Positions 1,637 to 17,700 are shown, counted from the first letter of the stretch. The stretch is DNA of 32,000 nucleotides from an uncultured bacterium (GCA_963704705.1 OY969931.1:150001-182000); one strand, 5' to 3'. Numbers and translations: made by a program. Notes: generated from the sequence alone by a model not told the origin.

Positions 1637-1694
1637 AATAAGTAGGATTAATATATTATTTAAAACTTTAAATGATAAAATTCATTACATGAAC

Positions 1695-1703
1695 ATTATA
1701 ACA
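1695..1703 (-). promoter_or_regulatory. Extended -10 (TGtTATAAT on the minus strand) upstream of the lipoprotein gene
   Basis: The reverse complement of 1695..1703 reads TGTTATAAT, about 60 nt upstream of ATG 1636. Confidence 0.4.
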
Positions 1704-1747
1704 TAAAAAAAGTTCTGATTTCGTTTACTACGTTCCGCCACTAAAAA

Positions 1748-2296
1748 TCACTTATTTATTAAGTGGTTTTTTATTATTGATAATTTCAAAACATAATACC
1801 CGCTAAAGCATGCAAAGAAGGTATTTAGCCAAAAGAATATCCAGTTCATTTCTATATAACTGAACACTGCGATTAATATGCTGCCGAGTGTAAGTGCAAG
1901 ATTTCTTCTGACAGTGCCCATTTGAAGTGCGTAACCGAGTCCAACTCCGGTTAATCCTAAAATGAAAATTATAGTGTTGTAATTTTCAAAAAGATAAAGT
2001 GACCAAATTATTAAAGCAGCTCCTGAAATTGTGATAATAGGTATATCAATTTTATCGGGTACATCAATCATCATCATCAAAGTTGCAATTGCAATTAAAA
2101 TCTGAAGAAAAATAAAGAAAATCGGACCCCCGCTTAAATATCCAAGCAAAGCAAAAATAAACATCAAAATATTTCCTGCAACAAATAGCCAATTTTTCAT
2201 TGAATAAACAGGGTGCTTAACTTTAACTATCGGCCAGGCTGCTCCGGTTACTAAAATTAGTGATCCAATGACTCCAATATAGAAATTATAGTTCAT
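1748..2296 (-). CDS. Polytopic integral membrane protein, unknown function
   Basis: 182-aa ORF made almost entirely of hydrophobic segments, about 6 predicted helices by eye (e.g. IGVIGSLILVTGAAWPIV, LFVAGNILMFIFALLGYL, IFFIFLQILIAIATLMMMI). Confidence 0.65.
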   Translation of the reverse strand: MNYNFYIGVIGSLILVTGAAWPIVKVKHPVYSMKNWLFVAGNILMFIFALLGYLSGGPIFFIFLQILIAIATLMMMIDVPDKIDIPIITISGAALIIWSLYLFENYNTIIFILGLTGVGLGYALQMGTVRRNLALTLGSILIAVFSYIEMNWIFFWLNTFFACFSGYYVLKLSIIKNHLINK

Positions 2297-2342
2297 GAAA
2301 GTTAGTGTTATCTAAGCAGATTATATCATAAAAGTTTTTTTC

Positions 2343-2391
2343 TTGATTAATCAAAACCGCGCACATATAATAGAGGCCCGATTAATCAAAA
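2343..2391 (+). promoter_or_regulatory. Sigma70-type promoter TTGATT-17-TATAAT flanked by two copies of the palindrome GATTAATC(AAAA)
   Basis: -35 TTGATT at 2343..2348, 17-nt spacer, -10 TATAAT at 2366..2371. The 12-mer GATTAATCAAAA occurs at 2345..2356 and 2380..2391. The core GATTAATC is self-complementary. Confidence 0.55.
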
Positions 2392-2408
2392 ATTAACCTT
2401 TTAAAATC

Positions 2409-2852
2409 ATGGCGGAAACATTTTTAAGTATTCAGGAAGCAGCGGAAATATCTGATAAATCAATCCAGACTATTCGAAGAGCGATCAAATCCAAAAAGCT
2501 TAAAGCCCGAAAAAAGAAAACGCCACAAGGTTACAATTATATGATCGAAAAAGACAGCTTAAGAAAGGCATACGATCTGAAATCCATTTTTAATGAACAG
2601 GTAAAAGAGAAAAAAGAAGAACAAAAAGATGCAATTTCAAAAACAGGACGAAAGCTTTCTAAGCAGTATCTTACAAAAGATGATCTTGGAATGTTCAAAG
2701 ATACAGTACAAAAAATAATAGATCAGCACGAAAAAGATCAAGAAAATCTCTTCCGACTAATCAAATCTTTTCAGGACAAAGTTGTTGTTTTAGAAAATCA
2801 GGTCAAACTTTTGGCTGAACCAAAAAAGAAGTGGTTTCAAATCTGGAAGTAG
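2409..2852 (+). CDS. Helix-turn-helix (excisionase/MerR-like HTH_17) DNA-binding protein with a coiled-coil C-terminus
   Basis: The N-terminus LSIQEAAEISDKSIQTIRRAIKSKKLKA matches the HTH_17 pattern. The rest is K/E/Q-rich and helical, ending ...VVVLENQVKLLAE. Confidence 0.6.
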   Translation: MAETFLSIQEAAEISDKSIQTIRRAIKSKKLKARKKKTPQGYNYMIEKDSLRKAYDLKSIFNEQVKEKKEEQKDAISKTGRKLSKQYLTKDDLGMFKDTVQKIIDQHEKDQENLFRLIKSFQDKVVVLENQVKLLAEPKKKWFQIWK

Positions 2853-2866
2853 GCTAGAATTGATTC

Positions 2867-3520
2867 ATGCGAGAAAAAAAATTACGTAAAGAGATTTTAC
2901 GAAAACTCTTCCATTTATATCAGCTTCCAATGATACTTGGGTACGTTGTTCTCCGATATTATTTTTCTGAGCGAATAGCGGTTTTTGCAATAGTAATAAT
3001 TTTGGTTATTATTTTGGAATTTGAATTTTTACGATTGGATTTGAATGTAAAGGTCCCGGACCCTTTTGGAATTATGAGACCTCATGAAAAAAAGAGTGTC
3101 AGCGCGATGTTGTTTGTAGCGCTTTCAACAATTGTGGTATTTTCGGTTTTTGATTTTAGAATAGCGATTACTGCAATGCTCATTATGGTTTTTGGGGATT
3201 TGGCTTCAGCATTAATCGGAATTAAATATGGAAAGCACAGGATAAAAAGCGGCAAGTCATGGGAAGGATTTATTGGTGGATTTGTTATGAACCTGATTGT
3301 TGCTTCAATATTTTTATGGGACTTTCCTTTAATTATTCTGGCAATGGCATTGGTTGGAAGTTTTGCGGAATTTCTTACATATAAACTTGATGACAATCTT
3401 ACTGTACCAATCTCGTCAGCTTTTGCCGGTCATATAATGGCTTTCATTTTAGGGGTCAGCTTGGTTCAGCTAACTAATCCTATAACAGATTTATACCAGT
3501 TTCTCACCTCATTTTTTTAG
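2867..3520 (+). CDS. CdsA/dolichol-kinase superfamily membrane protein (CTP-dependent polyprenol/phytol kinase-like)
   Basis: Polytopic 217-aa ORF carrying GDLASALIGIKYGKHRI..GKSWEGFIGGF and a C-terminal KLDDNLTVPI. These match the D..A...G...G / KS.EG / DN...P motifs of the family. Confidence 0.55.
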   Translation: MREKKLRKEILRKLFHLYQLPMILGYVVLRYYFSERIAVFAIVIILVIILEFEFLRLDLNVKVPDPFGIMRPHEKKSVSAMLFVALSTIVVFSVFDFRIAITAMLIMVFGDLASALIGIKYGKHRIKSGKSWEGFIGGFVMNLIVASIFLWDFPLIILAMALVGSFAEFLTYKLDDNLTVPISSAFAGHIMAFILGVSLVQLTNPITDLYQFLTSFF

Positions 3521-3558
3521 CAGAGGCGCGAAGCGACTCTATGGAGCGGAAAAAACAC

Positions 3559-3587
3559 TTGCACGTTTTTAAGAACGCGAGTACTGT
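3559..3587 (+). promoter_or_regulatory. Candidate gdh promoter TTGCAC-17-TACTGT
   Basis: -35-like TTGCAC at 3559..3564, 17-nt spacer, -10-like TACTGT at 3582..3587, 34 nt upstream of ATG 3621. Confidence 0.35.
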
Positions 3588-3620
3588 ATTTTTGCTTTTT
3601 TAGACTTAACCAAACACGAC

Positions 3621-4868
3621 ATGTCTTTGTTTCAGAACACCCTCAAGCAGATCAACGAAGCTGCTGAGATTATGAGCCTTGATAAAGATATTTTAACAAT
3701 CCTTTCCCATCCAAAAAGAATTATTCAGGTTAGCCTTCCTATTAGAATGGATGATGGTACAGTAAAAGTTTTCGAAGGATTCCGCGTACAACATAACGAT
3801 GTAGCCGGCCCTTTTAAAGGCGGCATTCGTTATCATCAACAGGTTGATATGGAAGAGGTTAAAGCTCTTGCAACCTGGATGACAATGAAATGCAGCGTTG
3901 TTGGAATTCCTCTTGGCGGAGCAAAAGGTGGGATCATTGTTGATCCAAAAACACTTTCAAAAAGAGAATTGGAAAAATTAAGCCGAAAATATATTGATAG
4001 AGTTCAGCATAATATTGGACCTCACATGGATGTGCCTGCTCCTGATGTTAATACAAACGGAGAAATAATGGCATGGATGGTAGATGAATATATGAAATTA
4101 GGAAATTTAAATAAAAGAGGCGTGGTAACAGGTAAGCCACTTGAAGTCGGCGGATCTGAAGGCCGCGATGCAGCAACCAGCCAGGGTGGATCTTACGTTT
4201 GGGAAGAAGTTGCAAAAGAAAAAGCAATCAACCCAGGTGAAACAAAAGTTGTAATTCAGGGATTCGGAAATGCAGGATCACACATGGCAAGAATCATGGG
4301 TGAACAAGGTTATAAAATTGTTGGAGTTTCTGATTCAAAAGGTGGTGTATATTGTGAAAACGGGCTAGACGCATCTTCAATGCTTAAATGTAAAATTGAA
4401 AAAGGATCAGTTACTGAATGTGAAACTCAGGCTGATCACTGTACTAAAGTTACAAACGAAGAATTATTGGAACAGGATTGCGACATTTTAGTTTTGGCTG
4501 CGCTTGAAAATCAGGTAACCGAGCAAAATGCTGCAAATATAAAAGCTAAATATATTATCGAGCTTGCAAACGGACCAACTACTCCTGAAGCAGATAAAAT
4601 TCTTGAGAAAAAAGGAGTGCTAGTTATACCTGACATTCTTGCAAACGCTGGAGGTGTAACAGTTAGCTATTTCGAACTTGTTCAGAACGAAGCAGGTTAT
4701 TACTGGACAGCAGATAAAATACAACGTCGCTTAAAACCAATCATGATCAAATCTACTCAGCGTATTAAAGAGATGATGGAAAAATACAACTGTTCAATGC
4801 GTCAGGCAGCGTTTATAAGCGCGATGAGCAGGCTTGAAGCAATGCTTAAGAAAAGAGGGTTCGAGTAA
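3621..4868 (+). CDS. gdhA: Glutamate dehydrogenase (Glu/Leu/Phe/Val dehydrogenase family)
   Basis: 415 aa. Contains FKGGIRYH, MTMKCSVVGIPLGGAKGGI and the Rossmann motif VVIQGFGNAGSH, with typical length and motif order. Confidence 0.9.
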   Translation: MSLFQNTLKQINEAAEIMSLDKDILTILSHPKRIIQVSLPIRMDDGTVKVFEGFRVQHNDVAGPFKGGIRYHQQVDMEEVKALATWMTMKCSVVGIPLGGAKGGIIVDPKTLSKRELEKLSRKYIDRVQHNIGPHMDVPAPDVNTNGEIMAWMVDEYMKLGNLNKRGVVTGKPLEVGGSEGRDAATSQGGSYVWEEVAKEKAINPGETKVVIQGFGNAGSHMARIMGEQGYKIVGVSDSKGGVYCENGLDASSMLKCKIEKGSVTECETQADHCTKVTNEELLEQDCDILVLAALENQVTEQNAANIKAKYIIELANGPTTPEADKILEKKGVLVIPDILANAGGVTVSYFELVQNEAGYYWTADKIQRRLKPIMIKSTQRIKEMMEKYNCSMRQAAFISAMSRLEAMLKKRGFE

Positions 4869-4895
4869 GCTGCCACAGAAACTGCCACAGGCTAT

Positions 4896-5516
4896 TTAAT
4901 TAGCCTTTCGGGCAATCTCTTCATGCATTCGCTTAACTGTAGCTTCAAGTCTTTGAACTATTGGATTGTTGAGTAGCTTTTGAAGTTCCTGTAGCACTTG
5001 TTCATAGTACCAAATCACGTTTTCTCTTCGAGGCTCAGGTGCGTTAAATATTTCCCACATTGATTCGCCTTCCTGTTTATATTTTTCTATGATCGTTTCT
5101 AGATTGTGGATTTTATCAGCAGCACACACCATGAGCGCTGCTTTAGAAGCTGATTTTAGGTGATCAACATACGCCTGTTTGCGTTCTTTCCATACCGCAC
5201 GTTTTTCTTCCTTGGTTTTTTTATGTTCACCGTCCTGATGAGTGACATGATTTACAATATCAGCTATTCTGGTACTAAAATCCTGAGCCATATCTTCATA
5301 ATTGTAACCTTCAACATCTTCCAGCACATCATGTAAAAACCCAGCTGAAATAATATCTTCATCATCAGTATATTCTGCCAAAATTCGTGCAACAGCATCC
5401 GGATGCGTGAAATAAGGTGTTTTGCTCCCTTTTCTAACCTGGTCGGAATGTTTTTCTTTGGCAAAATCGTGCGCTTTTTTTGTTTTTGGTGTTAGTTCCA
5501 TATTTTTATTGTTCAT
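4896..5516 (-). CDS. RSH-type HD-domain (p)ppGpp-like pyrophosphohydrolase, i.e. small alarmone hydrolase (SAH)
   Basis: AHDFAKEKHSDQVRKGSKTPYFTHPDAVARIL...ISAGFLHDVLEDV...IADIVNHVT...LMVCAADKIHNL follows the SpoT/Mesh1 hydrolase motif order H..R..PY..HP..VA / HD..ED / AD+.HN. There is no synthetase, TGS or ACT region. The alternative start Met6 (ATG 5501) lies 4 nt after the upstream stop. Confidence 0.85.
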   Translation of the reverse strand: MNNKNMELTPKTKKAHDFAKEKHSDQVRKGSKTPYFTHPDAVARILAEYTDDEDIISAGFLHDVLEDVEGYNYEDMAQDFSTRIADIVNHVTHQDGEHKKTKEEKRAVWKERKQAYVDHLKSASKAALMVCAADKIHNLETIIEKYKQEGESMWEIFNAPEPRRENVIWYYEQVLQELQKLLNNPIVQRLEATVKRMHEEIARKAN

Positions 5517-5760
5517 TCATAGCATTTACCATTCTTTCGAATTCATCTTTTTCAATTTTTTGACCTTCACTCATAAACAGTTCATCACTAGGATAACCTA
5601 CTTCCCATTCACCATTGTCTTTTAAGCCATATCTGGTCGATCCACGTCCGTCTTCGGTATATACTTCTTTAACAGGAACACCATTTACATTAAAGTAATA
5701 AGTTTGTCCTGCATCTCGTTCGCATTCTTCTTCATACGATAGTGGTTCATTCATTTCCAT
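5506..5760 (-). CDS. Small strongly acidic protein (candidate immunity/antitoxin)
   Basis: 84 aa. Hand count gives 21 D/E versus 8 K/R. It lies 33 nt downstream of the giant gene, and its stop overlaps or abuts the SAH start. I recognise no family. Confidence 0.6.
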   Translation of the reverse strand: MEMNEPLSYEEECERDAGQTYYFNVNGVPVKEVYTEDGRGSTRYGLKDNGEWEVGYPSDELFMSEGQKIEKDEFERMVNAMNEQ

Positions 5761-5793: not shown

Positions 5794-8700
5794 TTATTTC
5801 AATTTTACACGCTTTTTATACATCTCCCAAGCTGCTTCATTTATTTTTTGTTGAGATCGATTTAATTTCTTTTTAAAATAAAATAATTCTTCAGCTTTTG
5901 CCCTTTTTACCGGATTTTTTATTCCAGCAATTTGTTCAGGAGATCTGTCTGGAATAGACCTCCAAAGTTCATAAAATGTATGTGTTTGAAATTCAGTACC
6001 TGTTGGGAGTTTTAATTTTCCTTCTTTACCAATCCTTTTAGCAATTTCAGCAGCAAGCTCATGCTCTCTTTGTGAAAATTTTAATTTCCCTTTTAATGAA
6101 GGGATATTCATCCCTTGTTCTTTAACCTTAAGCATTTCAGAAATATGGAATTGTAATTCAGCTACTCTTCCATCTTTAAATTTAATGCTTATATTCATAT
6201 CTCTATATTGTGCAGGATGTTCGTTAGGTTTAAGTGGATCACCAAAGTTGTCTTTAATAAATATTTTAGCTACTTTAGGGTGCCTTTTAAGTGCCTCAAC
6301 AGCATGTCTAATTTGTGGAAGTGTACCATATTCCAATGATCCTCTAGCTATATCTAATAACTTTGACGCATTACCATTATACTCACCAGGATCTAAAGCT
6401 TTTTCCATTGTTCTTCCTATTTTTTTAACTGGTGCCTGATGATTACCGGTTTGATGACTTCCGTCTCCAATTAAATCTACACCTTCTTCCACAGGTTTAA
6501 CTTTCCCTGCAATATCATTCATTAAAGAGTCGAGCATATCTTTGGTTCCTTTTCGTTTTCCAAGTCTTACAATTTCCATATAATTTTCAAAAGCTTTGAA
6601 ATTAGCTTCATTTATTTTCGGATTAGTATTTGCAATCCCAAGTCTTTTTAATTGTGTTGGATTTTTTCGTATTGCTTGTAATTCTGCATATGAAGCATTT
6701 GCTAATCCAGGAGCTTTGCTTAAAAGCATTTCTTTCCCATGAATTTTAGCTTTTGTAGATTGAGATAATTTTTGTATTTTTACTGCTTCAGCCTGAACTT
6801 TTTGAACATATTTAATGTATGCATCAAACCTTTTTAATGCAGCTGGACTTGATAATCCTATTTTTTTTAACTTACCAGGACTATTTCTAAGTTTTACAAG
6901 TACCTCAATTGGCTTTTGAAGATCAGGCATTTTTGCGAGTGTTTGTTCAACACCGTTAATCCTTTTGGTAAATTGCTCAGCTATTCCATGATTTGTTACA
7001 TTTGGTTGATTAAATTTATCTAAACTAATTACAGCTTTATCTACTAGGTATTCTGCTTGTGTTTTATATATTTGTTTTTCACCCTTATAATTATATGCAA
7101 TAAGGCTTCCATCAGCATTTGTTTTTACAATCTGAAAAGCAGCTTCTTTTATATAATCCGTCATTTTTTCATAATATTGTACTTTTCCTTTTGTATTGTA
7201 AGCTAAAATTCCATGTTTATTTTTGTGCAGTAATGTATATGCAATTTCTTGTCTTTTACTTCGAGGGACTTGGTTTGTTTTATTAAATTCTGTTGCCAAT
7301 GCTTCCATGCTTGGCCTTTTCATAGTTCTTAAATTTATGCCTTGGCTTTCAGCAAGCTTTGCAATACTTCTTGATCCTTCTTTAGGAGCAACCTTTACCA
7401 ATGCTAAAGGCGTACCTACTACACCCGATACGACACTTATAGATAATATACCAAGATCTCTTAAATCTTTTGGAAGTAATTTTCCTAACTTAGGGTGTTC
7501 TTTTTTAAATTTTTCATATTTCCCATTATAATTATTCATAAATACTTGGAATGCATGTTTGATTGAGTTATTTTTTAAATATCCTTTAATTTTATCTTTT
7601 TTGTTTTTTAAAAAGTCTTCTGCATTTTTATATAATTTTGAACCTTCCCTTAAAGCTTGCATTCTTTTTTTAATCAATTCTTTTGAAAATAAAATACTTT
7701 CTACCGGTATTGAATTTATAATTTTTTTTGCTGTTTCTTCGGAAATCCCAAATTTTTTCAATTTGCCAATTAAAGAAGACTGAAGACTTTGTGCATTTTT
7801 AGTTATATGCCCATTTTGTTTAATAGATTCTCTTATTAACACAATGTATCCCGCATAAGCCGGATCTTCTGTTAACTCTTTGATGCCTGCAATTTGCTTA
7901 GCTGACAAACCTGCATATAATTCGATTTTATCAGGAGTAATTTTTTTATCACTCAGCATTTCGTTTAGAAGTTTTGCTTTTCCTCTTGTAATGGGATTTA
8001 CATCGCCTTGCATTTTGGCGATTTCTGCCTTTAATTGTGCTTTTTTTTCCCAATTACCAAATAATTTTCTAAATTTAGCACCCCCGAAGTGATATAGAGG
8101 CATTTGAGCTAAATTATTTATAAATGATGTATTACTAAAATAACTCATGACACCCGCAGATCCAGCCATATGAATAGCATTTGGAAATAAATTTTGAGTT
8201 AATTTTTGAAATTTGGAAAGCTCTGCAGGTGGAATTTTTCTAAACATTCTAGTAAATTTTGCAAGGGGATTTAATGCCATCCCAACAATCTTCATTGATC
8301 CAAGAAAGGTGAATGAATGTTTTACACCTTTAAAAGTAAATCTTTTCATCATTTCATTTAAACCTCCACCCTGGTCAGCAACCTGTAGTCCTGTCATCAA
8401 TGCTTCAAATGCCGGAGCCTCTACTGCCAAGCCCGCAGTTTCTGCAACTAATTTTGTAGTTAGATTTCTTATCAATCCCTGTTCTGCAAAACTTGCCAAC
8501 CTGCTAGTAACAAACGTTGTTGCCCCTCTTCCTAAAAAACCGGCTAAGCCGCCTGAAGCAACTATAAATAAAGCCTGCTTCAAACCATCATCATTTTTAG
8601 GCAGACGTAATTCCCCGGGTATATACTCCCCGTTTTCGTTGGTTATTGATTTAATTAAATCTTTAATTTCTTTTGCTTTTCCTTTTGTATACAAAACCTG

Positions 8701-10758
8701 CTTTACTTTTTTCATCATCAAAGCGTTCACGGAGTTATAATTTTTCATAAAACCTTTTTTCTCATCTAGTGTGCCTCTCATGATATCCAGCCAATCAGAA
8801 TTTTTATGCCATTTTCTTAACATTTTAGTTGTTTCACCTCGTTTTACTCCCGATAAAAATGCTTGTGAAGCATGTGTCCAATAATTTGGCACGGATGCAT
8901 TAATAAAATTATCTCCTCTTTGTATTTGTTTAGTTGTTGCATTTCTGCCGCGTAGCAATTTAAGTGCTTCATCCTCAAATAAATCTTTTCTTTTTTTATC
9001 ATTTTCAACTTCGGTTAATGTAACAATTCTTCTTACTAAATTATCGAAATTAAAATTATTTTTACTTCCCATATCTGCATCAACTTCTTGACCTAAATCA
9101 AGCTTATCAAATGCATCATGTAAAGAATTGGCTTTTCCTTTATTAATTAAATTTCTTAATTTATTAATTATTTTATAAGCGCCGAAATTTTTTCTTTTCT
9201 CAGGTTTCATCGGAACATTATTTATAACATTTTCCGCCATATTTAATATGCCTATTGAAGCCTTTTTTAAGCCTTCATTGCATTTTTCTTTTAATTCCAA
9301 ATATCCTTTATCCATCTGAACTTTGGCCCTTACATTTTTAAGTGGACTTCTTTTAATTTCGTCAGATTTTCTTGAAGAACTGTTTTGTAAATAATGACCA
9401 CCTTCGGAAAAACCCGCCTGATTTAGATATTTTTTAAAATGCGCATAGGCATTTATATAATCCTGGTTTTGCAAATCAACTTCTGCTCTGTAGTAATCTT
9501 TTTTAATAGGATCTTCTTTTGGATCTTCAATTTGTTTTTCAAATTTAAGCCTTTTAAAAATTTCCATATGATTATTTAATAATCCATTCAGAATACTGAT
9601 TTTCTGCATACCTTTTCCTTTTTTAAATAAAATGGTTGGAAAAAATTTATCTTTTGGATTATTTGGATTTTCTTTAAAGAAAAGACCGTACTGAGTATAA
9701 TTTTCTTCTATTGCAGCTTTCATTAATGGTCTATCTTCTTCTGGTAATAAATCCAATTGAGGATTTTTATAAAAGGTTTTTACTTGCACTAGCATTTTTG
9801 CGACCTGAACATCTAATATTTCTTCATTAAGCGAGTCAGGATATTTTTTTTCTTTTGAAACATTTTCATAATTATTGAATTCATCTATCACTAGATTAGA
9901 TTCAACTGATTTTTGTATTTCTCTGGCTTTATAATTTTTATTTTCAATCTCTTTTAATAAATCCATCCAATTTACTTTATTCTTTCCCTTTTTTAAAACA
10001 AGTTTGAAATTGGTAAATGAAGTTGGAGGCTCGTCCGGGATATCAGGGTTAATTTGTACAGGAACATCGCTTTTATCACCTGTTGTAGCCATCGAATATA
10101 TATGATCATCTTTATACTTATTTTCCATTTCATCAAATACAACTTTAAATTCAGATAACTTAACATTTCCGTTGCTATCAACACCGGTTACATAATTTGG
10201 ACCTTTAAGCCCGTGTATTACAGTTCCTGACTTGAAAAACATATTGAATTTTCCTTCAAGCAAAGATACTTCCAAAATGTCTTCCTTGATTTTTAAAGCG
10301 AGATCAGGGTGGAGCTTATCGATATTATTCTTTTTAGAAAAATTTTCGTAAAGTTTTTTAGCTTTTCCAAATTTTCTTTCCTTGACCAGTTTTTGTGTTT
10401 CCACTTCTTTTTTAAGCAACTCAACTTCAAAATATTCTTTTTGCTTTATTAGTAATTTTTCATACAATTTACCTGTTCTTTCATTTAATGAAGCATTTAA
10501 TTTTTCGCCCTCTTTGGCACTTACTTTTTTGTCCTTTAAAATTTCATTCATCAAATCCTGCGTGCCCCCCAGATATTGATCCATATCTGTTTCCCACCCT
10601 GGATAATTATTTTTTTTAATAAATTCTGTGGCCAGCTTTTGATATTTTGAAAGCATTTGTTTTGTTTCTTTGTATTTTTCCCATTTGGGAAAATTTTCAC
10701 CTAATTTATCTAATGCTGCTTTATCAACTACTTTTTTTGCATTTTCAAATACTTTCAT
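5794..10758 (-). CDS. Giant 1,654-aa protein with a C-terminal RelA/SpoT-like (toxSAS-like) nucleotidyl/pyrophosphotransferase domain
   Basis: An uninterrupted 4.96-kb ORF in AT-rich DNA. No N-terminal signal peptide (MKVFENAKKVVDKAALDK). Central Gly/Ala-rich hydrophobic block at aa ~727-895. Internal repeats at aa ~1183-1247 and ~1287-1400. RSH core motifs occupy the last ~190 aa. Confidence refers to a real CDS; I would put the functional call at about 0.55. Confidence 0.9.
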   Translation of the reverse strand: MKVFENAKKVVDKAALDKLGENFPKWEKYKETKQMLSKYQKLATEFIKKNNYPGWETDMDQYLGGTQDLMNEILKDKKVSAKEGEKLNASLNERTGKLYEKLLIKQKEYFEVELLKKEVETQKLVKERKFGKAKKLYENFSKKNNIDKLHPDLALKIKEDILEVSLLEGKFNMFFKSGTVIHGLKGPNYVTGVDSNGNVKLSEFKVVFDEMENKYKDDHIYSMATTGDKSDVPVQINPDIPDEPPTSFTNFKLVLKKGKNKVNWMDLLKEIENKNYKAREIQKSVESNLVIDEFNNYENVSKEKKYPDSLNEEILDVQVAKMLVQVKTFYKNPQLDLLPEEDRPLMKAAIEENYTQYGLFFKENPNNPKDKFFPTILFKKGKGMQKISILNGLLNNHMEIFKRLKFEKQIEDPKEDPIKKDYYRAEVDLQNQDYINAYAHFKKYLNQAGFSEGGHYLQNSSSRKSDEIKRSPLKNVRAKVQMDKGYLELKEKCNEGLKKASIGILNMAENVINNVPMKPEKRKNFGAYKIINKLRNLINKGKANSLHDAFDKLDLGQEVDADMGSKNNFNFDNLVRRIVTLTEVENDKKRKDLFEDEALKLLRGRNATTKQIQRGDNFINASVPNYWTHASQAFLSGVKRGETTKMLRKWHKNSDWLDIMRGTLDEKKGFMKNYNSVNALMMKKVKQVLYTKGKAKEIKDLIKSITNENGEYIPGELRLPKNDDGLKQALFIVASGGLAGFLGRGATTFVTSRLASFAEQGLIRNLTTKLVAETAGLAVEAPAFEALMTGLQVADQGGGLNEMMKRFTFKGVKHSFTFLGSMKIVGMALNPLAKFTRMFRKIPPAELSKFQKLTQNLFPNAIHMAGSAGVMSYFSNTSFINNLAQMPLYHFGGAKFRKLFGNWEKKAQLKAEIAKMQGDVNPITRGKAKLLNEMLSDKKITPDKIELYAGLSAKQIAGIKELTEDPAYAGYIVLIRESIKQNGHITKNAQSLQSSLIGKLKKFGISEETAKKIINSIPVESILFSKELIKKRMQALREGSKLYKNAEDFLKNKKDKIKGYLKNNSIKHAFQVFMNNYNGKYEKFKKEHPKLGKLLPKDLRDLGILSISVVSGVVGTPLALVKVAPKEGSRSIAKLAESQGINLRTMKRPSMEALATEFNKTNQVPRSKRQEIAYTLLHKNKHGILAYNTKGKVQYYEKMTDYIKEAAFQIVKTNADGSLIAYNYKGEKQIYKTQAEYLVDKAVISLDKFNQPNVTNHGIAEQFTKRINGVEQTLAKMPDLQKPIEVLVKLRNSPGKLKKIGLSSPAALKRFDAYIKYVQKVQAEAVKIQKLSQSTKAKIHGKEMLLSKAPGLANASYAELQAIRKNPTQLKRLGIANTNPKINEANFKAFENYMEIVRLGKRKGTKDMLDSLMNDIAGKVKPVEEGVDLIGDGSHQTGNHQAPVKKIGRTMEKALDPGEYNGNASKLLDIARGSLEYGTLPQIRHAVEALKRHPKVAKIFIKDNFGDPLKPNEHPAQYRDMNISIKFKDGRVAELQFHISEMLKVKEQGMNIPSLKGKLKFSQREHELAAEIAKRIGKEGKLKLPTGTEFQTHTFYELWRSIPDRSPEQIAGIKNPVKRAKAEELFYFKKKLNRSQQKINEAAWEMYKKRVKLK
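5959..6429 (-). other. RSH synthetase-like domain within the giant CDS (aa ~1444-1600)
   Basis: Ordered motifs: LLDIARGSLEY (Asp1469, nt 6352..6354); IKDNFGDPLKPNEHPAQYRDMNISI (nt 6193..6255), compared with the canonical KDYIA.PK.NGY.S.H; GRVAELQFHISEM (Glu1534, nt 6157..6159), compared with the canonical EIQIRT..M. Confidence 0.55.
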
Positions 10759-11083
10759 TATTTTTTATTTTTGATATAAATTTTTTACTATAACTTTTAA
10801 ATTTTTTTTGAAACTTATCAGTTAAATTATGCTTTGCCATAATTACAATTTTTTTATCATTTTCTTTTTGAATTATGTCTTTAAAATATTCATAAGTCTT
10901 CTTAATAAGAGAATTATTCGCGTTCTCAATAAATAATTTCCATTCATTTTTTTCATTTTCAGAAAGGAAATCAACGTAATTAATAAGCTGGATTAATTTT
11001 TGTTTTGTGATTTTTGTTTTCGGCATAATCTGAGCATAATATATCGTAATATTATACATCAAAAATCGTTTAAAATAAAGCAA
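10745..11083 (-). CDS. Small K/N-rich hypothetical protein at the head of the giant-gene module; true start probably ATG 11026 (93 aa)
   Basis: The track ORF begins at a TTG (11083..11081). An in-frame ATG at 11026 (MPKTKITKQKL...) lies downstream of a TATAAT at 11056..11051 (minus strand). The stop TGA 10745..10747 overlaps the giant gene's ATG (10758..10756) by 14 nt. Confidence 0.5.
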   Translation of the reverse strand: MLYFKRFLMYNITIYYAQIMPKTKITKQKLIQLINYVDFLSENEKNEWKLFIENANNSLIKKTYEYFKDIIQKENDKKIVIMAKHNLTDKFQKKFKSYSKKFISKIKNNESI

Positions 11084-12716: not shown

Positions 12717-13667
12717 TTACCTAACCCTCATCAAGCTTGCTTTACACTTTTCTCCCTCATCAGCTACTTTAATTGTGCCTTCTTCGGTATATTCAATGAT
12801 TATATGATCAGCTGATATATCAGATGATTTTTCAGGATCAAACCAATGAAATTTAGGATTGGCTTCAAGTTTTTTAATGGCAATTTCAAGCGTTTCAACC
12901 TTAGATTGAGCTAATTTAACTTTTTCATCTGCAATCATTGTTTCTTGGGAAACAGTACTGATTCTATTTTGTATATTAAACTCGCTTCTGGCTTTATTCA
13001 GCACTTCATTGGCTTTTTTAAGTTTTTCTTTTGCCATTTTAAGCAATCTTGTATCAGCCTGACCAATTGAATATTCTTCACCCGTTTCTATTTCAATTAT
13101 TAATTTTCTTCCTATTTCAGAATCCGCAGTTGAACACCAAACTATTAATTTCTCCTCTTTTCTTTCAATATTAAGAATGTGATTTTTTTCTTCTCCTTCT
13201 CTTTCAATTTCGATTTTAAGTTGCTGACATTCGCCGATTGTTATTGGTTTTTCTTTTTTTAGTTTAATTGTTTGCCCTACCCGAATTATTGATATTTCTT
13301 CCATTGCTTTTTCAACTTTTTGTGAACTTTGTGTTTGAACTTTGCCTACTGATTTAAGAATATTTGCTAAATCAACAAATAACCTTTCAGCAAAATTTCT
13401 GATTCCGGAAAAGCGATCTAATATTGAGCCTGCTTCACTTTTAAATAAATCAAGTGCGGTTTGTTTGCTATAATTCCCCTTAACATAATTCATAATTGGA
13501 TTAATCACATAATAAATTCCAAGAAGTTTTTTGATTAGTTCAGAATTTATTTCTTCTTCAACAGGGACTTTGACTTGCATCATCTCGCCATATATCTCCT
13601 TTTCTTTCAATCCTTCAACTAAAGTATCAGGTTCGATCTCTGGGTTTATTGATTCTTTTGTGCTCAT
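12717..13667 (-). CDS. Hypothetical protein with a coiled-coil region; possible degenerate FHA-like C-terminus
   Basis: 316-aa ORF in a clean gap between pckA and ppdK. Coiled-coil-like stretch KLKKANEVLNKARSEF...KVKLAQSKVETLEIAIKKLE. The C-terminal ISADHIIIEYTEEGTIKVADEGEKC loosely fits the FHA pattern S..H......G....D.G. Confidence 0.6.
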   Translation of the reverse strand: MSTKESINPEIEPDTLVEGLKEKEIYGEMMQVKVPVEEEINSELIKKLLGIYYVINPIMNYVKGNYSKQTALDLFKSEAGSILDRFSGIRNFAERLFVDLANILKSVGKVQTQSSQKVEKAMEEISIIRVGQTIKLKKEKPITIGECQQLKIEIEREGEEKNHILNIERKEEKLIVWCSTADSEIGRKLIIEIETGEEYSIGQADTRLLKMAKEKLKKANEVLNKARSEFNIQNRISTVSQETMIADEKVKLAQSKVETLEIAIKKLEANPKFHWFDPEKSSDISADHIIIEYTEEGTIKVADEGEKCKASLMRVR

Positions 13668-13787: not shown

Positions 13788-16379
13788 ATGCAATACATCT
13801 ATTCTTTCAAAGAAGGCAACCGCAATATGAAAGACACGCTTGGCGGTAAAGGCGCTAATCTCGCGGAAATGACTAAACTTGGAATTCCTGTTCCGCAAGG
13901 TTTTACGATTACAACCGATGTATGTGATTTGTATTTTAAAAATAATGGGTACCCGCAAGGATACGATGGTGATCTCGATAATTATATAAAAAATTTAGAG
14001 GAAGAGACCGGTAAAAAATTTGGCGATTTTTCTGATCCGCTTTTAGTTTCTGTGCGTTCCGGTGCTGCAATTTCAATGCCCGGAATGATGGACACTGTTC
14101 TTAATCTAGGCTTAAACGATGAGACGATTAAGGGTCTTATCCAAAAAACCGGAAACGAAAGATTTTGTTACGATGCTTATCGCCGTTTTATACAAATGTT
14201 CGGGGATGTTGTTTTGGGAATCGACCATCATAACTTTGAAGAAAAGCTAGAAGCAATAAAAAAAGAAAAAGGTGTAGAAAAAGATATTGATCTTAATGCA
14301 GAAGATCTAAAAAAATTGGTTTCGGAATATAAAGAAATCGTTTTTAAAGAGAAGGGAGAGCCATTCCCGGATGATCCGAAAAAGCAATTGGACATGTCTA
14401 TCGAAGCCGTGTTTTCGTCTTGGAATAACCAAAGAGCGCGAACATATAGACGTTTAAACAAAATAACCGGACTTCGCGGAACAGCTGTAAATGTCCAGAG
14501 CATGGTATTTGGAAATATGGGCGAAAATTCGGGTACCGGTGTTGCATTCACCCGCGATCCATCAACAGGTACAAACGAATTTTACGGTGAATATCTTATG
14601 AATGCGCAGGGTGAAGATGTTGTTGCCGGAATCAGGACTCCAAATAAAATCGAAAATTTAAAAAATGAAATGCCTCAAATTTATGAAGAGCTCATGAATA
14701 TTCGAAATAATCTTGAGAATCATTATAAAGAAATGCAGGATATTGAGTTTACAATTGAAAATGGCAAATTATTCATGCTGCAAACCAGAACCGGAAAACG
14801 CACAGCTGCTGCAGCTTTAAAAATCGCTGTTGATCTTGTGCGAGAAGGCCAGATTACAAAAGAAGAAGCACTTTTAAGACTTGATCCTAACCAGTTGAAT
14901 CAATTGTTGCATCCAATGTTGGATCCTAAAGCTGAGAAGAATATTTTAGCAAAGGGTCTGCCTGCATCGCCCGGGGCAGCCTGCGGAAAAGTTGTTTTTA
15001 CTGCTGACAACGCGGCTGAATGGGCTGAAAAAGGCGAAAAAGTTATTTTGGTTCGTAAAGAAACATCACCTGAAGATATTCACGGAATGCATGCTGCTCA
15101 GGGCATCTTAACTTCAACCGGAGGAATGACTAGCCATGCAGCTGTTGTTGCCCGCGGAATGGGGACTCCTTGTGTTGCTGGATGCGGAGATGTGCAGGTT
15201 GATTATGCTAGTCGTAAATTTAATGTTGGTGAAACTACAGTTAACGAAGGCGATATAATAACTTTGGACGGCGCCCTAGGTCAGGTTATTTTGGGCGAGG
15301 TTCCAACTATAGAACCTGAGCTTACAGGCGATTTTCAGGAAGTCATGACATGGGCCCGCGAAGCAAAAAGGCTTGGGGTAAGAACCAATTGCGACACTCC
15401 CCACGATGCACAAGTTGCCCGAGAATTTGGTGCCGAAGGAATCGGATTATGCCGAACAGAGCATATGTTTTTTGATGAAACAAGAATTAAAAACATGCGC
15501 GAGATGATTTTGGCCAAAGATCTCGAAGGCCGAAAAATCGCTTTGGCAAAGCTAAAACCTCATCAAAAAGAAGACTTCGTCGGAATATTTAAAGCCATGG
15601 ATGGTCTTGGTGTGACAATAAGACTTCTTGACCCGCCGCTTCACGAATTCCTTCCTCAAAAAGAAGAGCACATTGAAGAATTGTCACGCGAAATGAATGT
15701 GCCAATTGATGAACTTAAGAAAAAAGTCGCATCACTTCACGAAATGAATCCAATGCTTGGCCATCGTGGTTGTCGTCTTGGAATCACTTATCCTGAAATT
15801 TACGAGATGCAGGTCAGCGCAATTATCGAAGCCGGAATTGAAGCGCAAAAACAGGGCATCAGACCTGTCCCTGAAATCGAGATTCCCCTTGTTTCAAGCG
15901 CAAATGAATTTTTACAATTAAAAGAACGTTTACAAAAAATCATCGACCAATACGAAGTAACATTTGAATATAAAATCGGAACAATGGTTGAAACTCCGCG
16001 CTGCGCACTTACCGCAGACGAAATTGCTGAGCATGCAGATTTTATGTCATTTGGAACAAACGATTTAACTCAAATGACTTTCGGATTCTCACGTGATGAT
16101 ATCGGCAAATTTCTTCCGGACTATATTGAAAACGGAATCCTTGAAGTTGATCCATTCGAATCCATCGATATTAATGGAGTTGGAAAACTTATGAAGTGGA
16201 CAGTTGAACAGGGCAAAGCAAAAAATCCTGATGTTGAAATAGCTATTTGCGGAGAGCAGGGCGGCGAGCCAAAATCAGTTGAATTCTGCCACTCGATCGG
16301 CCTTGATTATGTGAGCTGTTCGCCGTTTAGAGTGCCGATTGCAATACTCGCGGCTGCTCAGGCTAATTTAAAAAAGTAA
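13788..16379 (+). CDS. ppdK: Pyruvate, phosphate dikinase
   Basis: 863 aa. N-terminus YSFKEGNRNMKDTLGGKGANLAEM, phospho-His loop GGMTSHAAVVARGMG, C-terminal PEP-utilising motifs GLCRTEHMF, FSFGTNDLTQ-like MSFGTNDLTQM, and ICGEQGG. Confidence 0.95.
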   Translation: MQYIYSFKEGNRNMKDTLGGKGANLAEMTKLGIPVPQGFTITTDVCDLYFKNNGYPQGYDGDLDNYIKNLEEETGKKFGDFSDPLLVSVRSGAAISMPGMMDTVLNLGLNDETIKGLIQKTGNERFCYDAYRRFIQMFGDVVLGIDHHNFEEKLEAIKKEKGVEKDIDLNAEDLKKLVSEYKEIVFKEKGEPFPDDPKKQLDMSIEAVFSSWNNQRARTYRRLNKITGLRGTAVNVQSMVFGNMGENSGTGVAFTRDPSTGTNEFYGEYLMNAQGEDVVAGIRTPNKIENLKNEMPQIYEELMNIRNNLENHYKEMQDIEFTIENGKLFMLQTRTGKRTAAAALKIAVDLVREGQITKEEALLRLDPNQLNQLLHPMLDPKAEKNILAKGLPASPGAACGKVVFTADNAAEWAEKGEKVILVRKETSPEDIHGMHAAQGILTSTGGMTSHAAVVARGMGTPCVAGCGDVQVDYASRKFNVGETTVNEGDIITLDGALGQVILGEVPTIEPELTGDFQEVMTWAREAKRLGVRTNCDTPHDAQVAREFGAEGIGLCRTEHMFFDETRIKNMREMILAKDLEGRKIALAKLKPHQKEDFVGIFKAMDGLGVTIRLLDPPLHEFLPQKEEHIEELSREMNVPIDELKKKVASLHEMNPMLGHRGCRLGITYPEIYEMQVSAIIEAGIEAQKQGIRPVPEIEIPLVSSANEFLQLKERLQKIIDQYEVTFEYKIGTMVETPRCALTADEIAEHADFMSFGTNDLTQMTFGFSRDDIGKFLPDYIENGILEVDPFESIDINGVGKLMKWTVEQGKAKNPDVEIAICGEQGGEPKSVEFCHSIGLDYVSCSPFRVPIAILAAAQANLKK

Positions 16380-16380
16380 A

Positions 16381-16716
16381 ATGAACGAAAGAGACGAATA
16401 TCAAATAGGAAAAATCCATGAACTTTTAGATACCATGGAGGCGCAGGAGCCCGACCCGACAGTGCAAAAGCTGGTTGATGCAGTAAGGGACAGACTTCAT
16501 TTAATGACTCCAGATTGCAGACCTTATTTTTCACCAAGAGAAGAAGCAGCGCGTATAGAATTATATGAAGAGCTTTTGTTAATGCCGGATAAAGATTTGG
16601 AATATTTTTTAGAATTGAAAGTAGGCGAGGCAATCAATCATTTAGATCATAGAACTTTAAATGGGCTTGCTTTAACAAGATTGCATATGGAAATGAGTGC
16701 AAGAACGCTGCACTAG
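16381..16716 (+). CDS. Small acidic hypothetical protein, start 2 nt after the ppdK stop
   Basis: 111-aa ORF. ATG 16381 immediately follows TAA 16377..16379. Its composition is less AT-rich than the surrounding intergenic DNA. I recognise no motif. Confidence 0.5.
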   Translation: MNERDEYQIGKIHELLDTMEAQEPDPTVQKLVDAVRDRLHLMTPDCRPYFSPREEAARIELYEELLLMPDKDLEYFLELKVGEAINHLDHRTLNGLALTRLHMEMSARTLH

Positions 16717-16905: not shown

Positions 16906-17700
16906 ATGACAAAAATAAAAATGTTTAAAGAAAAAAGATTAATCCATTTTAGTGGAGGACCTGAATTTAAGGGTACTACTGATCCGGAACCTTATAAGGA
17001 CGAACGTGCTAACTTAAATCTTAAACAACCTGAAAAGAAACTAACTTTAGAAAAGACTTTTAATCGAGATGCATTAAAAAAATATGTTGAAGGCAAGATT
17101 GACAGAACAAATTCAGATCAATTAAAGAAATTACAAGAAAAAATTAAGAAAAAAGGCTGGTCGCAGGATATAAATGATGATTTTTGTAAGAATGTACTTG
17201 GTTTGAAAATCGAAGGCAGAAGCAAGGAGCAAATTAACATCATTATCAAAGGATTTCAGCAAGAAATAAAAACCAGATTTCCCAAAGCCGCAGATCTGAA
17301 AGTTGATGGAAAATTTGGTAAAAAATTCGCTGAAGCTTTGTTAGCCATGGATGAAGTTGAAAATAGTGTATATTATCCAATTGACGACATTATTTTTGTA
17401 TCTGTAGAAGACATGTTTGGGAAAGTGGATGTAAATAAAGTATCAAAATGTGGTAAGATTAAAGATAAAGCAAAAAGAAACGAGTTCTTTTGGAAAAGTG
17501 TTCTAGGATTAGAAATGCCAAATGGAAATCCAAAAGAGCAGGCTAAATCTATAAAAGATAATGTTAAACAATTACAGAACTACATGAAATATAAATCGGG
17601 TAAAAGTATTGATGCTGACGGACAAGTTGGCCCTCAAACTTTGGATGCTTTTGCTAAATTGGTAAAACCTGCCGTAGAATTTAACGACGGTTTATTCTAA
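16906..17700 (+). CDS. Protein with two peptidoglycan-binding-like (PG_binding_1-type) repeats, no signal peptide
   Basis: Internal duplication: FCKNVLGLKIEG..KEQ...IKGFQQEIK...LKVDGKFGKKFAEALLAM versus FWKSVLGLEMPNG..KEQ...VKQLQNYMK...IDADGQVGPQTLDAFAKL. The DG.(F/V)G....(A/D)A(L/F) pattern resembles PG_binding_1. Confidence 0.55.
   Translation: MTKIKMFKEKRLIHFSGGPEFKGTTDPEPYKDERANLNLKQPEKKLTLEKTFNRDALKKYVEGKIDRTNSDQLKKLQEKIKKKGWSQDINDDFCKNVLGLKIEGRSKEQINIIIKGFQQEIKTRFPKAADLKVDGKFGKKFAEALLAMDEVENSVYYPIDDIIFVSVEDMFGKVDVNKVSKCGKIKDKAKRNEFFWKSVLGLEMPNGNPKEQAKSIKDNVKQLQNYMKYKSGKSIDADGQVGPQTLDAFAKLVKPAVEFNDGLF

Follow-up and report, generated by a model that had tools for sequence, protein, structure and literature searches.

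What is the C-terminal domain of a giant protein encoded on a 32,000-nucleotide stretch of DNA from an uncultured bacterium (GCA_963704705.1 OY969931.1:150001-182000; this whole stretch is called the window), and what do the altered residues of its active site mean? A preliminary description had matched the region at window positions 5959 to 6429 on the minus strand, which corresponds to residues 1444 to 1600 of a 1654-amino acid (aa) open reading frame (ORF), motif by motif to the synthetase core of the RelA/SpoT homologs (RSH), and had proposed from its substitutions that the substrate is noncanonical. We found that residues ~1440 to 1610 form an RSH synthetase domain. Probably this domain is a toxin of the toxSAS/EAS type that ends a polymorphic-toxin-like giant protein and is neutralized by a small binding protein together with a hydrolase that degrades its product. 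The gene and the domain lie as follows.

5794-10758, minus strand: giant ORF of 1654 aa with the candidate toxin domain at its C terminus; called gene P0001, 100% identical, on a 1,374,545-bp NCBI/ENA contig.
5929-6441, minus strand: RSH/toxSAS-type pyrophosphokinase (SYNTH) domain, residues ~1440-1610, from PDB profile matches, AlphaFold2, and Foldseek.

To place the domain, we searched 1.84 billion representative proteins exhaustively with HMMER (E ≤1e-3), which returned 369 relatives. A word-indexed homolog search with the 255-residue C terminus as the query gave no match and missed even the protein itself; with a profile of 43 sequences (the window domain and 42 relatives) it gave just eight distant proteins. 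Locus scans with the toxin domain gave no match in GTDB genomes and JGI metagenomes, and those with the alignment of the hydrolase gave unrelated HD proteins only. As a single sequence, the last 255 residues matched one PDB structure, that of Tas1 (6ox6, E = 4.9e-4). The 43-sequence profile matched Tas1 at 2.8e-23, Bacillus subtilis YwaC/RelP at 4.4e-10, and Escherichia coli RelA at 2.3e-7, along with RelP, RelQ, Rel_Seq, and other Rel enzymes, and the bit scores (86-88 for Tas1, 43 for YwaC, and 34-36 for RelA) put it nearer to Tas1 than to the housekeeping small alarmone synthetases (SAS) or the long RSH enzymes. In the alignment of the profile with E. coli RelA, LFDVRAVRIV is paired with LlDlaRgtiv and VEIQIRT with aELQlhl; the register that had been drawn by hand against RelA was thereby recovered exactly, including the spacing of 16 residues between Tyr1518 and Glu1534, which is that of RelA. 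Pfam RelA_SpoT (PF04607) was matched by 42 of 94 full-length relatives.

The fold agrees with the homology. An AlphaFold2 model made with the 43-sequence alignment reached a pLDDT of 82.1 and a pTM of 0.65, while the single-sequence model (pLDDT 50.6) was unusable. The former has the central antiparallel sheet and flanking helices of the nucleotidyltransferase-like SYNTH fold. When it was compared with the PDB by Foldseek, Tas1 ranked first (4.5e-6), ranks 2 to 30 were all SAS, Rel, or RelA enzymes, and all of the top 50 matches were RSH synthetases, SAS1, RelP, Rel, and RelA among them. The motif-by-motif match claimed earlier therefore stands: profile search and structure comparison both return RSH synthetases, and some of the relatives fall in RelA_SpoT. 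These results support grouping the domain with the toxic or exported relatives rather than with the housekeeping RelA, RelP, or RelQ. In a library of viral structures, the best matches of the model were phage RelA/SpoT-like and Tas1-like domains; they sit in phage proteins of 1000 to 1300 aa annotated as DdrB-like or ART-PolyVal-like ("polyvalent"), a further giant-carrier setting for the same synthetase domain.

The active site can be followed through the motifs listed here, in which LLDIARGSLEY represents residues 1467 to 1477 (including D1469) and IKDNF...ISEML residues 1501 to 1543 (including Y1518 and E1534). Tas1 and the Vibrio enzyme RelV/VpEAS are given for comparison.

6400-6426, minus strand: syn1-like K1445-x3-R1449-x3-K1453, by homology binding the phosphates of the donor ATP; aligned with P-K...R-K of RelA.
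6337-6354, minus strand: syn2, D1469-I-A-R1472-G-S; the Asp is by homology the metal-binding catalytic residue.
6193-6210, minus strand: syn3, Q1517-Y1518-R-D1520-M-N1522, where RSH enzymes have G-Y-x-S-x-H, VpEAS GYRDLN, and Tas1 GYSGVN.
6145-6159, minus strand: syn4, E1534-L-Q1536-F-H1538, where RSH enzymes have E-I-Q-I-R; the Glu is catalytic by homology.
5986-6123, minus strand: insertion of ~45 residues (1546-1591), placed after the catalytic strand and ahead of the last conserved helix, from the alignments; the model has a helix at 135-147.
5959-5982, minus strand: syn5-like helix H1593-T-F-Y1596-E-L-W-R1600, aligned with GHKYYEDWR of Tas1.

All of the RSH catalytic and ATP-binding residues are present (K1445, R1449, K1453, D1469, Y1518, E1534, and Q1536), and for two of them the counterparts in known enzymes are named active-site residues (E382/Q384 in Tas1 and E182/Q184 in SaEAS; PMC12691689). 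We counted conservation in an alignment of 151 sequences, made up of the window domain, Tas1, and 149 relatives. D1469 and E1534 were the only two invariant columns (151/151), and so the two residues proposed earlier for catalytically dead mutants are at the right positions. K1445 (147 sequences), K1453 (149), R1472 (143), Y1518 (145), and Q1536 (141) were each kept in at least 93% of the sequences, and R1449 in 141. The substitutions listed in the preliminary description (D-I-A-R-G-S, Q-Y-R-D-M-N, and E-L-Q-F-H) are real and can be read directly in the window protein, and they are mostly the family consensus rather than peculiar to it, as seen for R1472 and for R1519 (137), D1520 (148), and H1538 (119); N1522 was found in only 31 sequences. 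The syn2 arginine stands at a shifted position with respect to the RSH pattern D-x-x-G/A-x-R, as it does in Tas1 (DLARNT) and VpEAS (DLARAT). One statement had to be corrected: the helix that follows EIQIRT in RelA, described as not recognizable, is present as T-H-T-F-Y-E-L-W-R (1592-1600) and is displaced by the ~45-residue insertion, which is common to the closest clade and has a similar counterpart in Tas1. The tyrosine of this helix is kept in 120 of the 151 sequences, with Phe in a further 13.

Two genes on the same strand follow that of the candidate toxin, giving the order toxin (5794-10758), small ORF, hydrolase.

5506-5760, minus strand: 84-aa ORF, candidate cognate (binding) immunity protein; starts 33 nucleotides (nt) past the stop codon of the toxin gene.
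4896-5516, minus strand: small alarmone hydrolase of 206 aa, candidate enzymatic immunity; Pfam HD_4 (PF13328) at 1.6e-20, above the cutoff.

Read from Met1 (5516), the hydrolase ORF would overlap the 84-aa ORF by 11 nt. Its true start is probably Met6 at 5501, 4 nt past the stop of the 84-aa ORF, because the orthologs at loci L001 and L005 begin at the equivalent position (MELT.../MDLT...). A conserved family of ORFs of 82 to 102 aa directly follows the toxin gene at six other places (L001, L002, L005, L006, L007/L008, and L009), with 57 to 27% identity to the window ORF (E from 8e-33 to 2e-8) and with L007 linked through L009 and L006. An HD_4 hydrolase comes after the small ORF in the window and at three of these loci: L001 has the toxin, an 82-aa ORF, and HD_4; L005 has the toxin, a 90-aa ORF, and HD_4, followed by genes for glutamate dehydrogenase, a 217-aa protein, and a helix-turn-helix (HTH) protein as in the window; and L009 has a 102-aa ORF and HD_4 behind an orphan toxin fragment. 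L006 and L007/L008 have the toxin and the small ORF only. At L002 (9079-9774, downstream of the 364-aa P0008), the domain of this family makes up the N-terminal ~100 residues of a 231-aa protein with a hydrophobic C-terminal half, which may be a membrane-anchored immunity variant; genes for a type I restriction subunit and for ParB-like and IstB-like proteins give the same locus a mobile-element flavor. A match of the 84-aa ORF to choline-binding/glucan repeats was below threshold and was taken as a beta-hairpin-like resemblance in composition. Within the window, we found no second copy of the toxin or of either immunity gene and no internal repeats by self-BLAST, and a promoter and terminator scan of the locus did no better than shuffled sequence.

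The hydrolase is of a well-defined type. Its best PDB matches, over its full length, were RelH_Cg (7qoc, 2.3e-31) and RelH_Ll (7qoe, 4.5e-28), and its THP, LHD, LED, and AADK motifs make up the His...His-Asp...Glu-Asp...Asp metal-binding and catalytic set of HD_4. The (p)ppApp-specific Aph1 (7smg) was matched at E = 3.8e-4 only, over residues 13 to 98, and the hydrolase does not belong to the Aph1 family as defined by its signature (D24, R96, D116, R119, K133, and Y134; PMC10083569). R28-K29-G30 and N138-L-E-T141 align with R-K-N and N-M-R-T of Staphylococcus aureus Rel; such R-K-x and N-x-x-T motifs serve guanine recognition in TtRel, the mapping to TtRel being by motif inference, and are changed in Aph1 (PMC10083569).

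The protein that carries the domain was examined along its length.

6475-7617, minus strand: pretoxin region, residues ~1048-1428; similar by blastp to the closest relatives only (P0002, P0003, P0004, and the L009 ORF).
7396-7452, minus strand: strongly hydrophobic segment, residues 1103-1121 (GILSISVVSGVVGTPLALV), with a Kyte-Doolittle mean of 1.96 across 19 residues; candidate transmembrane helix.
8509-8586, minus strand: weaker hydrophobic stretch rich in Gly and Ala, residues 725-750; Kyte-Doolittle mean 1.2-1.3.
7618-10758, minus strand: N-terminal ~1047 residues, with no signal peptide and no family match.
10745-11083, minus strand: 112-aa ORF with a TTG start that overlaps the start of the giant gene; its membership in the operon is uncertain, and its exact sequence is absent from the protein collection.

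By blastp, the N-terminal ~1047 residues show no similarity even to the N termini of the closest relatives (P0004 and the L009 protein), and the N-terminal 1428 residues gave no match in Pfam, NCBIfam, PADLOC, PHROGs, or the PDB. Weak Pfam matches of the giant protein to DUF4404, GeBP, and PRD were dismissed as noise. In 118 of 150 relatives the synthetase domain lies at the C terminus, and distant relatives carry eCIS_core, PAAR, RHS, PT-HINT, or WXG100 domains. A long, fast-diverging N-terminal carrier, a pretoxin region with a hydrophobic segment, the toxin, and the immunity genes make up the build of a polymorphic toxin. At L009 (2861-9664), a 1294-aa protein with the toxin domain (895-1198) is followed by a DDE_Tnp_1 transposase and, past it, by a 229-aa orphan toxin fragment (P0006), the 102-aa immunity homolog, and the HD_4 hydrolase. 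On this Patescibacteria contig, the set has the look of a toxin-immunity cassette that was orphaned or displaced, as is typical of polymorphic-toxin loci. Two proteins contain two copies of the synthetase domain each, P0009 (3127 aa) at ~2339-2427 and ~2663-2743 and P0016 (2115 aa) at ~857-997 and ~1966-2085. The 112-aa ORF matches no family and is not homologous to the small ORFs found upstream in relatives; two of those, at L006 and L009, resemble each other weakly (E = 8e-6).

We propose the following mechanism on the strength of these homologies. The toxin would be the C-terminal 170 to 190 residues, a predicted nucleotide 3'-pyrophosphokinase of the Tas1/Apk1-like group of toxSAS/EAS. It would bind ATP-Mg through K1445, R1449, K1453, D1469, R1472, E1534, and Q1536, and a purine nucleotide, stacked on Y1518, would receive the beta-gamma pyrophosphate of this ATP at its 3'-OH. 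Unchecked production of (p)ppGpp and/or (p)ppApp would then drain ATP and/or GTP and stop the growth of the recipient cell. The producer would be protected by the two downstream genes, presumed to be cotranscribed with that of the toxin: binding and blocking of the toxin is the role predicted for the 84-aa protein, whose mode of action is a guess, and the RelH-like hydrolase is predicted to strip the 3'-pyrophosphate from leaked product.

Several results weigh against this interpretation. Neither the whole window protein nor its last 268 residues matched Pfam RelA_SpoT at E ≤1, and the protein scored below every NCBIfam RelA_SpoT threshold. The Foldseek TM-scores were modest (~0.5), because the peripheral helices differ or sit poorly in the model. 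The N terminus is hydrophilic and has no signal peptide; none of the PAAR, RHS, LXG/WXG, MuF, DUF4157, or XopAD domains was found in the N-terminal 1428 residues, and no secretion-system genes adjoin the operon, which makes export a presumption. The 84-aa ORF, searched as a single sequence and as a seven-sequence profile, gave no PDB match to the Tis1 chain of 6OX6. Finally, neither the small ORF nor the hydrolase was recognizable in the two relatives checked (L013 and L014) from genomes with genetic code 25, and the module is accordingly not universal in the clade.

The lack of a signal peptide and of known trafficking domains raises the question whether the protein leaves the cell at all. 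It might belong to an intracellular toxin-antitoxin (TA) or abortive-infection module, in which the ~1400-residue N terminus has a sensory or regulatory role and frees the toxin when the cell is attacked by phage or stressed. TA modules made of a toxSAS, a hydrolase, and a small antitoxin do exist, as with FaRel (PMC7229694), CapRel is a phage sensor (PMC12691689), and some relatives lie in polyvalent or mobile-element contexts (ddrB-ParB, ResIII, L002, and phage proteins). A PADLOC scan, however, gave no match, and hypervariable N termini on a conserved pretoxin and toxin module are a hallmark of delivered polymorphic toxins; the orphan cassette behind a transposase, the hydrophobic segments, and the relatives with PAAR, RHS, eCIS, or WXG100 domains point the same way. 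We regard an intracellular module as unlikely and prefer a delivered toxin.

The RelH-like hydrolase invites a different suggestion, that the domain and the hydrolase are the cell's own pair for (p)ppGpp synthesis and degradation, anchored to a large membrane protein of an organism whose genome is reduced. RelH_Cg, which the hydrolase resembles, is a housekeeping (p)ppGpp hydrolase (PMC10083569), the motif states of the domain are those of RelV, a physiological source of (p)ppGpp in Vibrio, and the operon lies among housekeeping genes with a GC content like that of its surroundings. Against such a role are the small ORF conserved between synthetase and hydrolase in several lineages, the extreme variation of the carrier, the orphan copy of the toxin fragment with its transposase, and the lethality of VpEAS and RelV when they are kept in the cytoplasm (PMC12691689). 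A housekeeping pair is therefore quite improbable, and the toxin with its two candidate immunity genes remains the reading that we follow below.

To address what the altered residues mean for the acceptor, we compared them with those of enzymes of known product. The earlier proposal that they indicate a noncanonical acceptor finds no support: VpEAS, which uses only a guanosine acceptor and makes pppGpp (PMC12691689), has the same states, and the substitutions are the norm of the family. The domain might take GDP/GTP, ATP/ADP, or both as its acceptor. Vibrio RelV/VpEAS (Q87Q55_VIBPA; sequences from the supplement of PMC12691689) has DLARAT, KNRF, GYRDLN, and EVQLH where the window protein has DIARGS, KDNF, QYRDMN, and ELQFH. 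Asn in place of the RSH "His" (N169/N370) recurs in Tas1, a maker of (p)ppApp, and is listed for SaEAS, which makes both products, being counted among the ATP-binding residues (PMC12691689); enzymes that carry it thus include some that make (p)ppApp alone, some that make (p)ppGpp alone, and some that make both. In adenosine 3'-pyrophosphokinases (Apk), syn2 has R-Y-T in place of A-V-R, syn3 G-x-N in place of S-x-H, and syn4 Y-H in place of I-R, and when syn2, syn3, and syn4 of Apk2 were converted to the RSH consensus the enzyme was inactive and made no pppGpp, that is, its specificity was not switched (PMC12226406). Of the published Apk signature (syn2 R-x-T, syn3 G-x-N, and syn4 (Y/V)-(H/N)), R-G-S and F-H of the window domain fit and D-M-N does not, and the signature does not discriminate, because VpEAS, which is specific for (p)ppGpp, has these states too. 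The comparison carries a warning that acceptor specificity should not be read off the syn motifs, since they take the same states in (p)ppGpp-only enzymes.

Distances did not separate the two groups either. Over 97 columns of the core, the window domain is 28.4% identical to VpEAS and 28.3% identical to Tas1, and in a neighbor-joining tree it falls in a separate clade of 21 members. Hidden Markov model (HMM) scores were 29.7 bits for RelV and 23.5 for Tas1 with the single sequence and 41.9 and 28.6 with a profile of the close clade, the RelV fragments scoring slightly above Tas1 even though they lack the C-terminal part. This clade, equidistant from Tas1 and RelV and associated with a RelH-like hydrolase, would be a useful enzyme-antidote pair for work on specificity.

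An enzyme like Tas1/Apk1 and Apk2 would use adenosine nucleotides, make (p)ppApp only, and kill by depletion of ATP. Such a product would suit the closeness of Tas1 in both sequence and fold, the post-strand insertion and the H-x-x-Y-E-x-W-R...P..SPE tail common to the two proteins, the shifted syn2 Arg and the syn3 Asn, both described as Apk signatures (PMC12226406), and the order toxin, small ORF, HD hydrolase as in Apk2-IapK-Aph1 (PMC10083569). It fits less well with D-x-N in place of the G-x-N of Apk at syn3, with a motif set that is as a whole that of RelV/VpEAS, a maker of pppGpp only, with equal core identity to Tas1 and VpEAS and HMM scores that slightly favor RelV, and with a RelH-like hydrolase that keeps the R-K-G and H-N-x-x-T motifs and matches Aph1 marginally. 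We consider an adenosine-only enzyme possible but doubtful, and we lean slightly toward guanosine nucleotides or dual specificity instead. By our judgment, which is not a computed figure, (p)ppGpp alone is the product to name first, held tentatively and at well short of even confidence; (p)ppApp alone comes after it, the two alarmones together are a somewhat fainter prospect, and pyrophosphorylation of tRNA or another acceptor is improbable.

The last of these would make the domain a tRNA-pyrophosphorylating toxSAS like FaRel2 or CapRel, and it is the least supported option, to which we give very little credence. The tRNA-targeting toxSAS have the same fold and catalytic residues and do turn up in the Foldseek search, FaRel2 at rank 31 (1.1e-3) and CapRel at rank 47 (5.6e-3), far behind Tas1, and among the matches of the family profile at E ≤1 there was no PDB chain of either. 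The hydrolase gene does not exclude a tRNA target, because tRNA-targeting toxSAS are likewise neutralized by small alarmone hydrolases (PMC7229694, Table 1), nor does it settle the product in general, because hydrolases neutralize every toxSAS type (PMC7229694).

When the locus as a whole is set beside known systems, the closest solved structure is that of Tas1/Apk1, the (p)ppApp synthetase effector of the T6SS (type VI secretion system) of Pseudomonas aeruginosa PA14 (6OX6). Both proteins have a C-terminal toxin domain on a carrier with an immunity gene directly downstream, and they share the shifted syn2 Arg, the syn3 Asn, the insertion, and the H-x-x-Y-E-x-W-R tail. They differ in that Tas1 sits on a PAAR carrier and leaves the cell through the T6SS, whereas the carrier of the window protein, ~1400 residues long, is unrelated, with no T6SS genes to be seen; in GYSGVN and EIQVN as against QYRDMN and ELQFH, at ~28% core identity; in that no hydrolase is linked to Tas1; and in that Tis1 is not similar in sequence to the 84-aa ORF. 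RelV/VpEAS, the Sec-exported and (p)ppGpp-specific Vibrio enzyme (PMC12691689), has the motif states of the window domain in DLARAT, GYRDLN, EVQLH, and KNRF, with HMM scores equal to or slightly above those of Tas1. It is, however, a stand-alone protein of ~260 aa that carries a Sec signal peptide and lacks immunity genes, while the window domain, 28% identical in the core, ends a 1654-aa protein that lacks a signal peptide and is linked to two candidate protective genes.

In gene order, the nearest parallel is with the Apk2-IapK(Tis1-like)-Aph1 cassettes that go with MuF polymorphic toxins of prophages, in which a C-terminal toxin is followed by a small immunity gene and an HD pyrophosphohydrolase, an arrangement described as bicistronic immunity (PMC10083569, PMC12226406), and in which the toxin belongs to the same Tas1-like superclade as the window domain. 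The window carrier is not MuF and its locus is not a prophage, the hydrolase is RelH-like (2.3e-31) and not Aph1 (3.8e-4), the small ORF has no detectable relation to Tis1, and syn3 has DxN and not GxN. FaRel of Cellulomonas marina with ATfaRel and AT2faRel (PMC7229694) is alike by description in combining a hydrolase antitoxin that degrades the product with a second, small, and specific antitoxin, but it is a small cytoplasmic TA toxin and not the tip of a giant protein, and its hydrolase is of the PbcSpo subfamily. RelH_Cg and RelH_Ll (7QOC/7QOD and 7QOE), the closest solved relatives of the 206-aa protein over its full length, have the same HD_4 domain with its H...HD...ED...D motifs; they are stand-alone housekeeping hydrolases, whereas the window hydrolase is the third gene of a toxin operon.

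The host lies in the Patescibacteria, near the Peregrinibacteria: the best named relatives of its RecA are from a Patescibacteria group bacterium (87%), Candidatus Peregrinibacteria (86%), and Gracilibacteria (79%). The window is chromosomal, with genes for RecA, RecX, NusA, PilB, DprA, NAD kinase, phosphoenolpyruvate (PEP) carboxykinase, pyruvate phosphate dikinase, and glutamate dehydrogenase. Recent horizontal acquisition of the operon was considered and finds no support, as its GC content (31 to 38%) matches that of the window (35%).

Toxic or exported alarmone synthetases are a recently recognized class of bacterial weapon, and to our knowledge their known carriers (PAAR, MuF, LXG, eCIS, XopAD, and Sec) come from cultured phyla only. 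The warhead class, the polymorphic-toxin logic, and two-layer immunity are already published; what appears to be new is the lineage, the unrecognizable carrier, the family of small ORFs, and a hydrolase of the RelH type rather than of the Aph1 or PbcSpo type. In the literature that we searched, no paper linked Patescibacteria to an alarmone-synthetase type of toxin. The locus would thus place the same warhead and two-layer antidote in ultrasmall Patescibacteria, on carriers that match nothing known, and, if the toxin is delivered, would open a way to study the interactions of these epibionts with other cells. We hypothesize, as a speculation in which we have little confidence, that Peregrinibacteria-like and code-25 Gracilibacteria-like genomes arm giant membrane-associated proteins with an alarmone-synthetase warhead that is used on contact against host or competitor cells, with the new small immunity family and the RelH-type hydrolase protecting the producer. 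If this were true, the host or competitor cells on which the epibionts depend would be arrested, killed, or metabolically reprogrammed, the host possibly being forced into a stringent state driven by (p)ppGpp, and a mechanism at the level of an effector would have been proposed for the first time in this branch of the candidate phyla radiation, which would also imply a new route of toxin delivery.

The code-25 relatives were recognized from Trp at conserved Gly positions in the database proteins P0012, P0017, P0028, P0029, P0046, P0063, and P0070. The stored P0017 and P0028 are table-4 translations with 48 to 52 in-frame TGA codons, and translation with table 25 (TGA = Gly) restores the conserved glycines, for example in ARGTLEY and GYRD. 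These relatives, with the loci L013 (5385-8585) and L014 (112-3159), have a GC content of 24 to 31%. These Trp-for-Gly relatives are from genomes of the code-25 Gracilibacteria/Absconditabacteria type that are mistranslated in public collections.

Around the cassette, the order at window positions 2409 to 5516 is that of L005 at 1684 to 4737: HTH_17, a 217-aa membrane protein (weakly CTP_transf_1), glutamate dehydrogenase, and the hydrolase. PEP carboxykinase comes directly after the hydrolase in L001 and upstream of the toxin gene in the window, a difference in position that indicates local rearrangement. In the window it is flanked by ORFs without a family match at 12717-13667 and 10745-11083, both on the minus strand. 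Overlapping ORFs of 91 and 111 aa on opposite strands lie at 16358-16716, directly after the pyruvate phosphate dikinase gene, with a GC content of 0.40, slightly above that of the window, and no family or Rfam match. By Rfam and ARAGORN, the sole RNA gene in the window is a tRNA-Asp (GTC) at 631-707 on the plus strand. An ATPase of the PilB type of type II secretion systems and type IV pili (576 aa) and DprA (359 aa) are encoded at 23909-26702, ~13 to 20 kb from the toxin operon; pilus and competence machinery of this PilB/DprA kind is typical of Patescibacteria. The product of 16906-17700 on the plus strand is a Lys-rich protein of 264 aa with a peptidoglycan-binding domain (PG_binding_3/1) at its C terminus.

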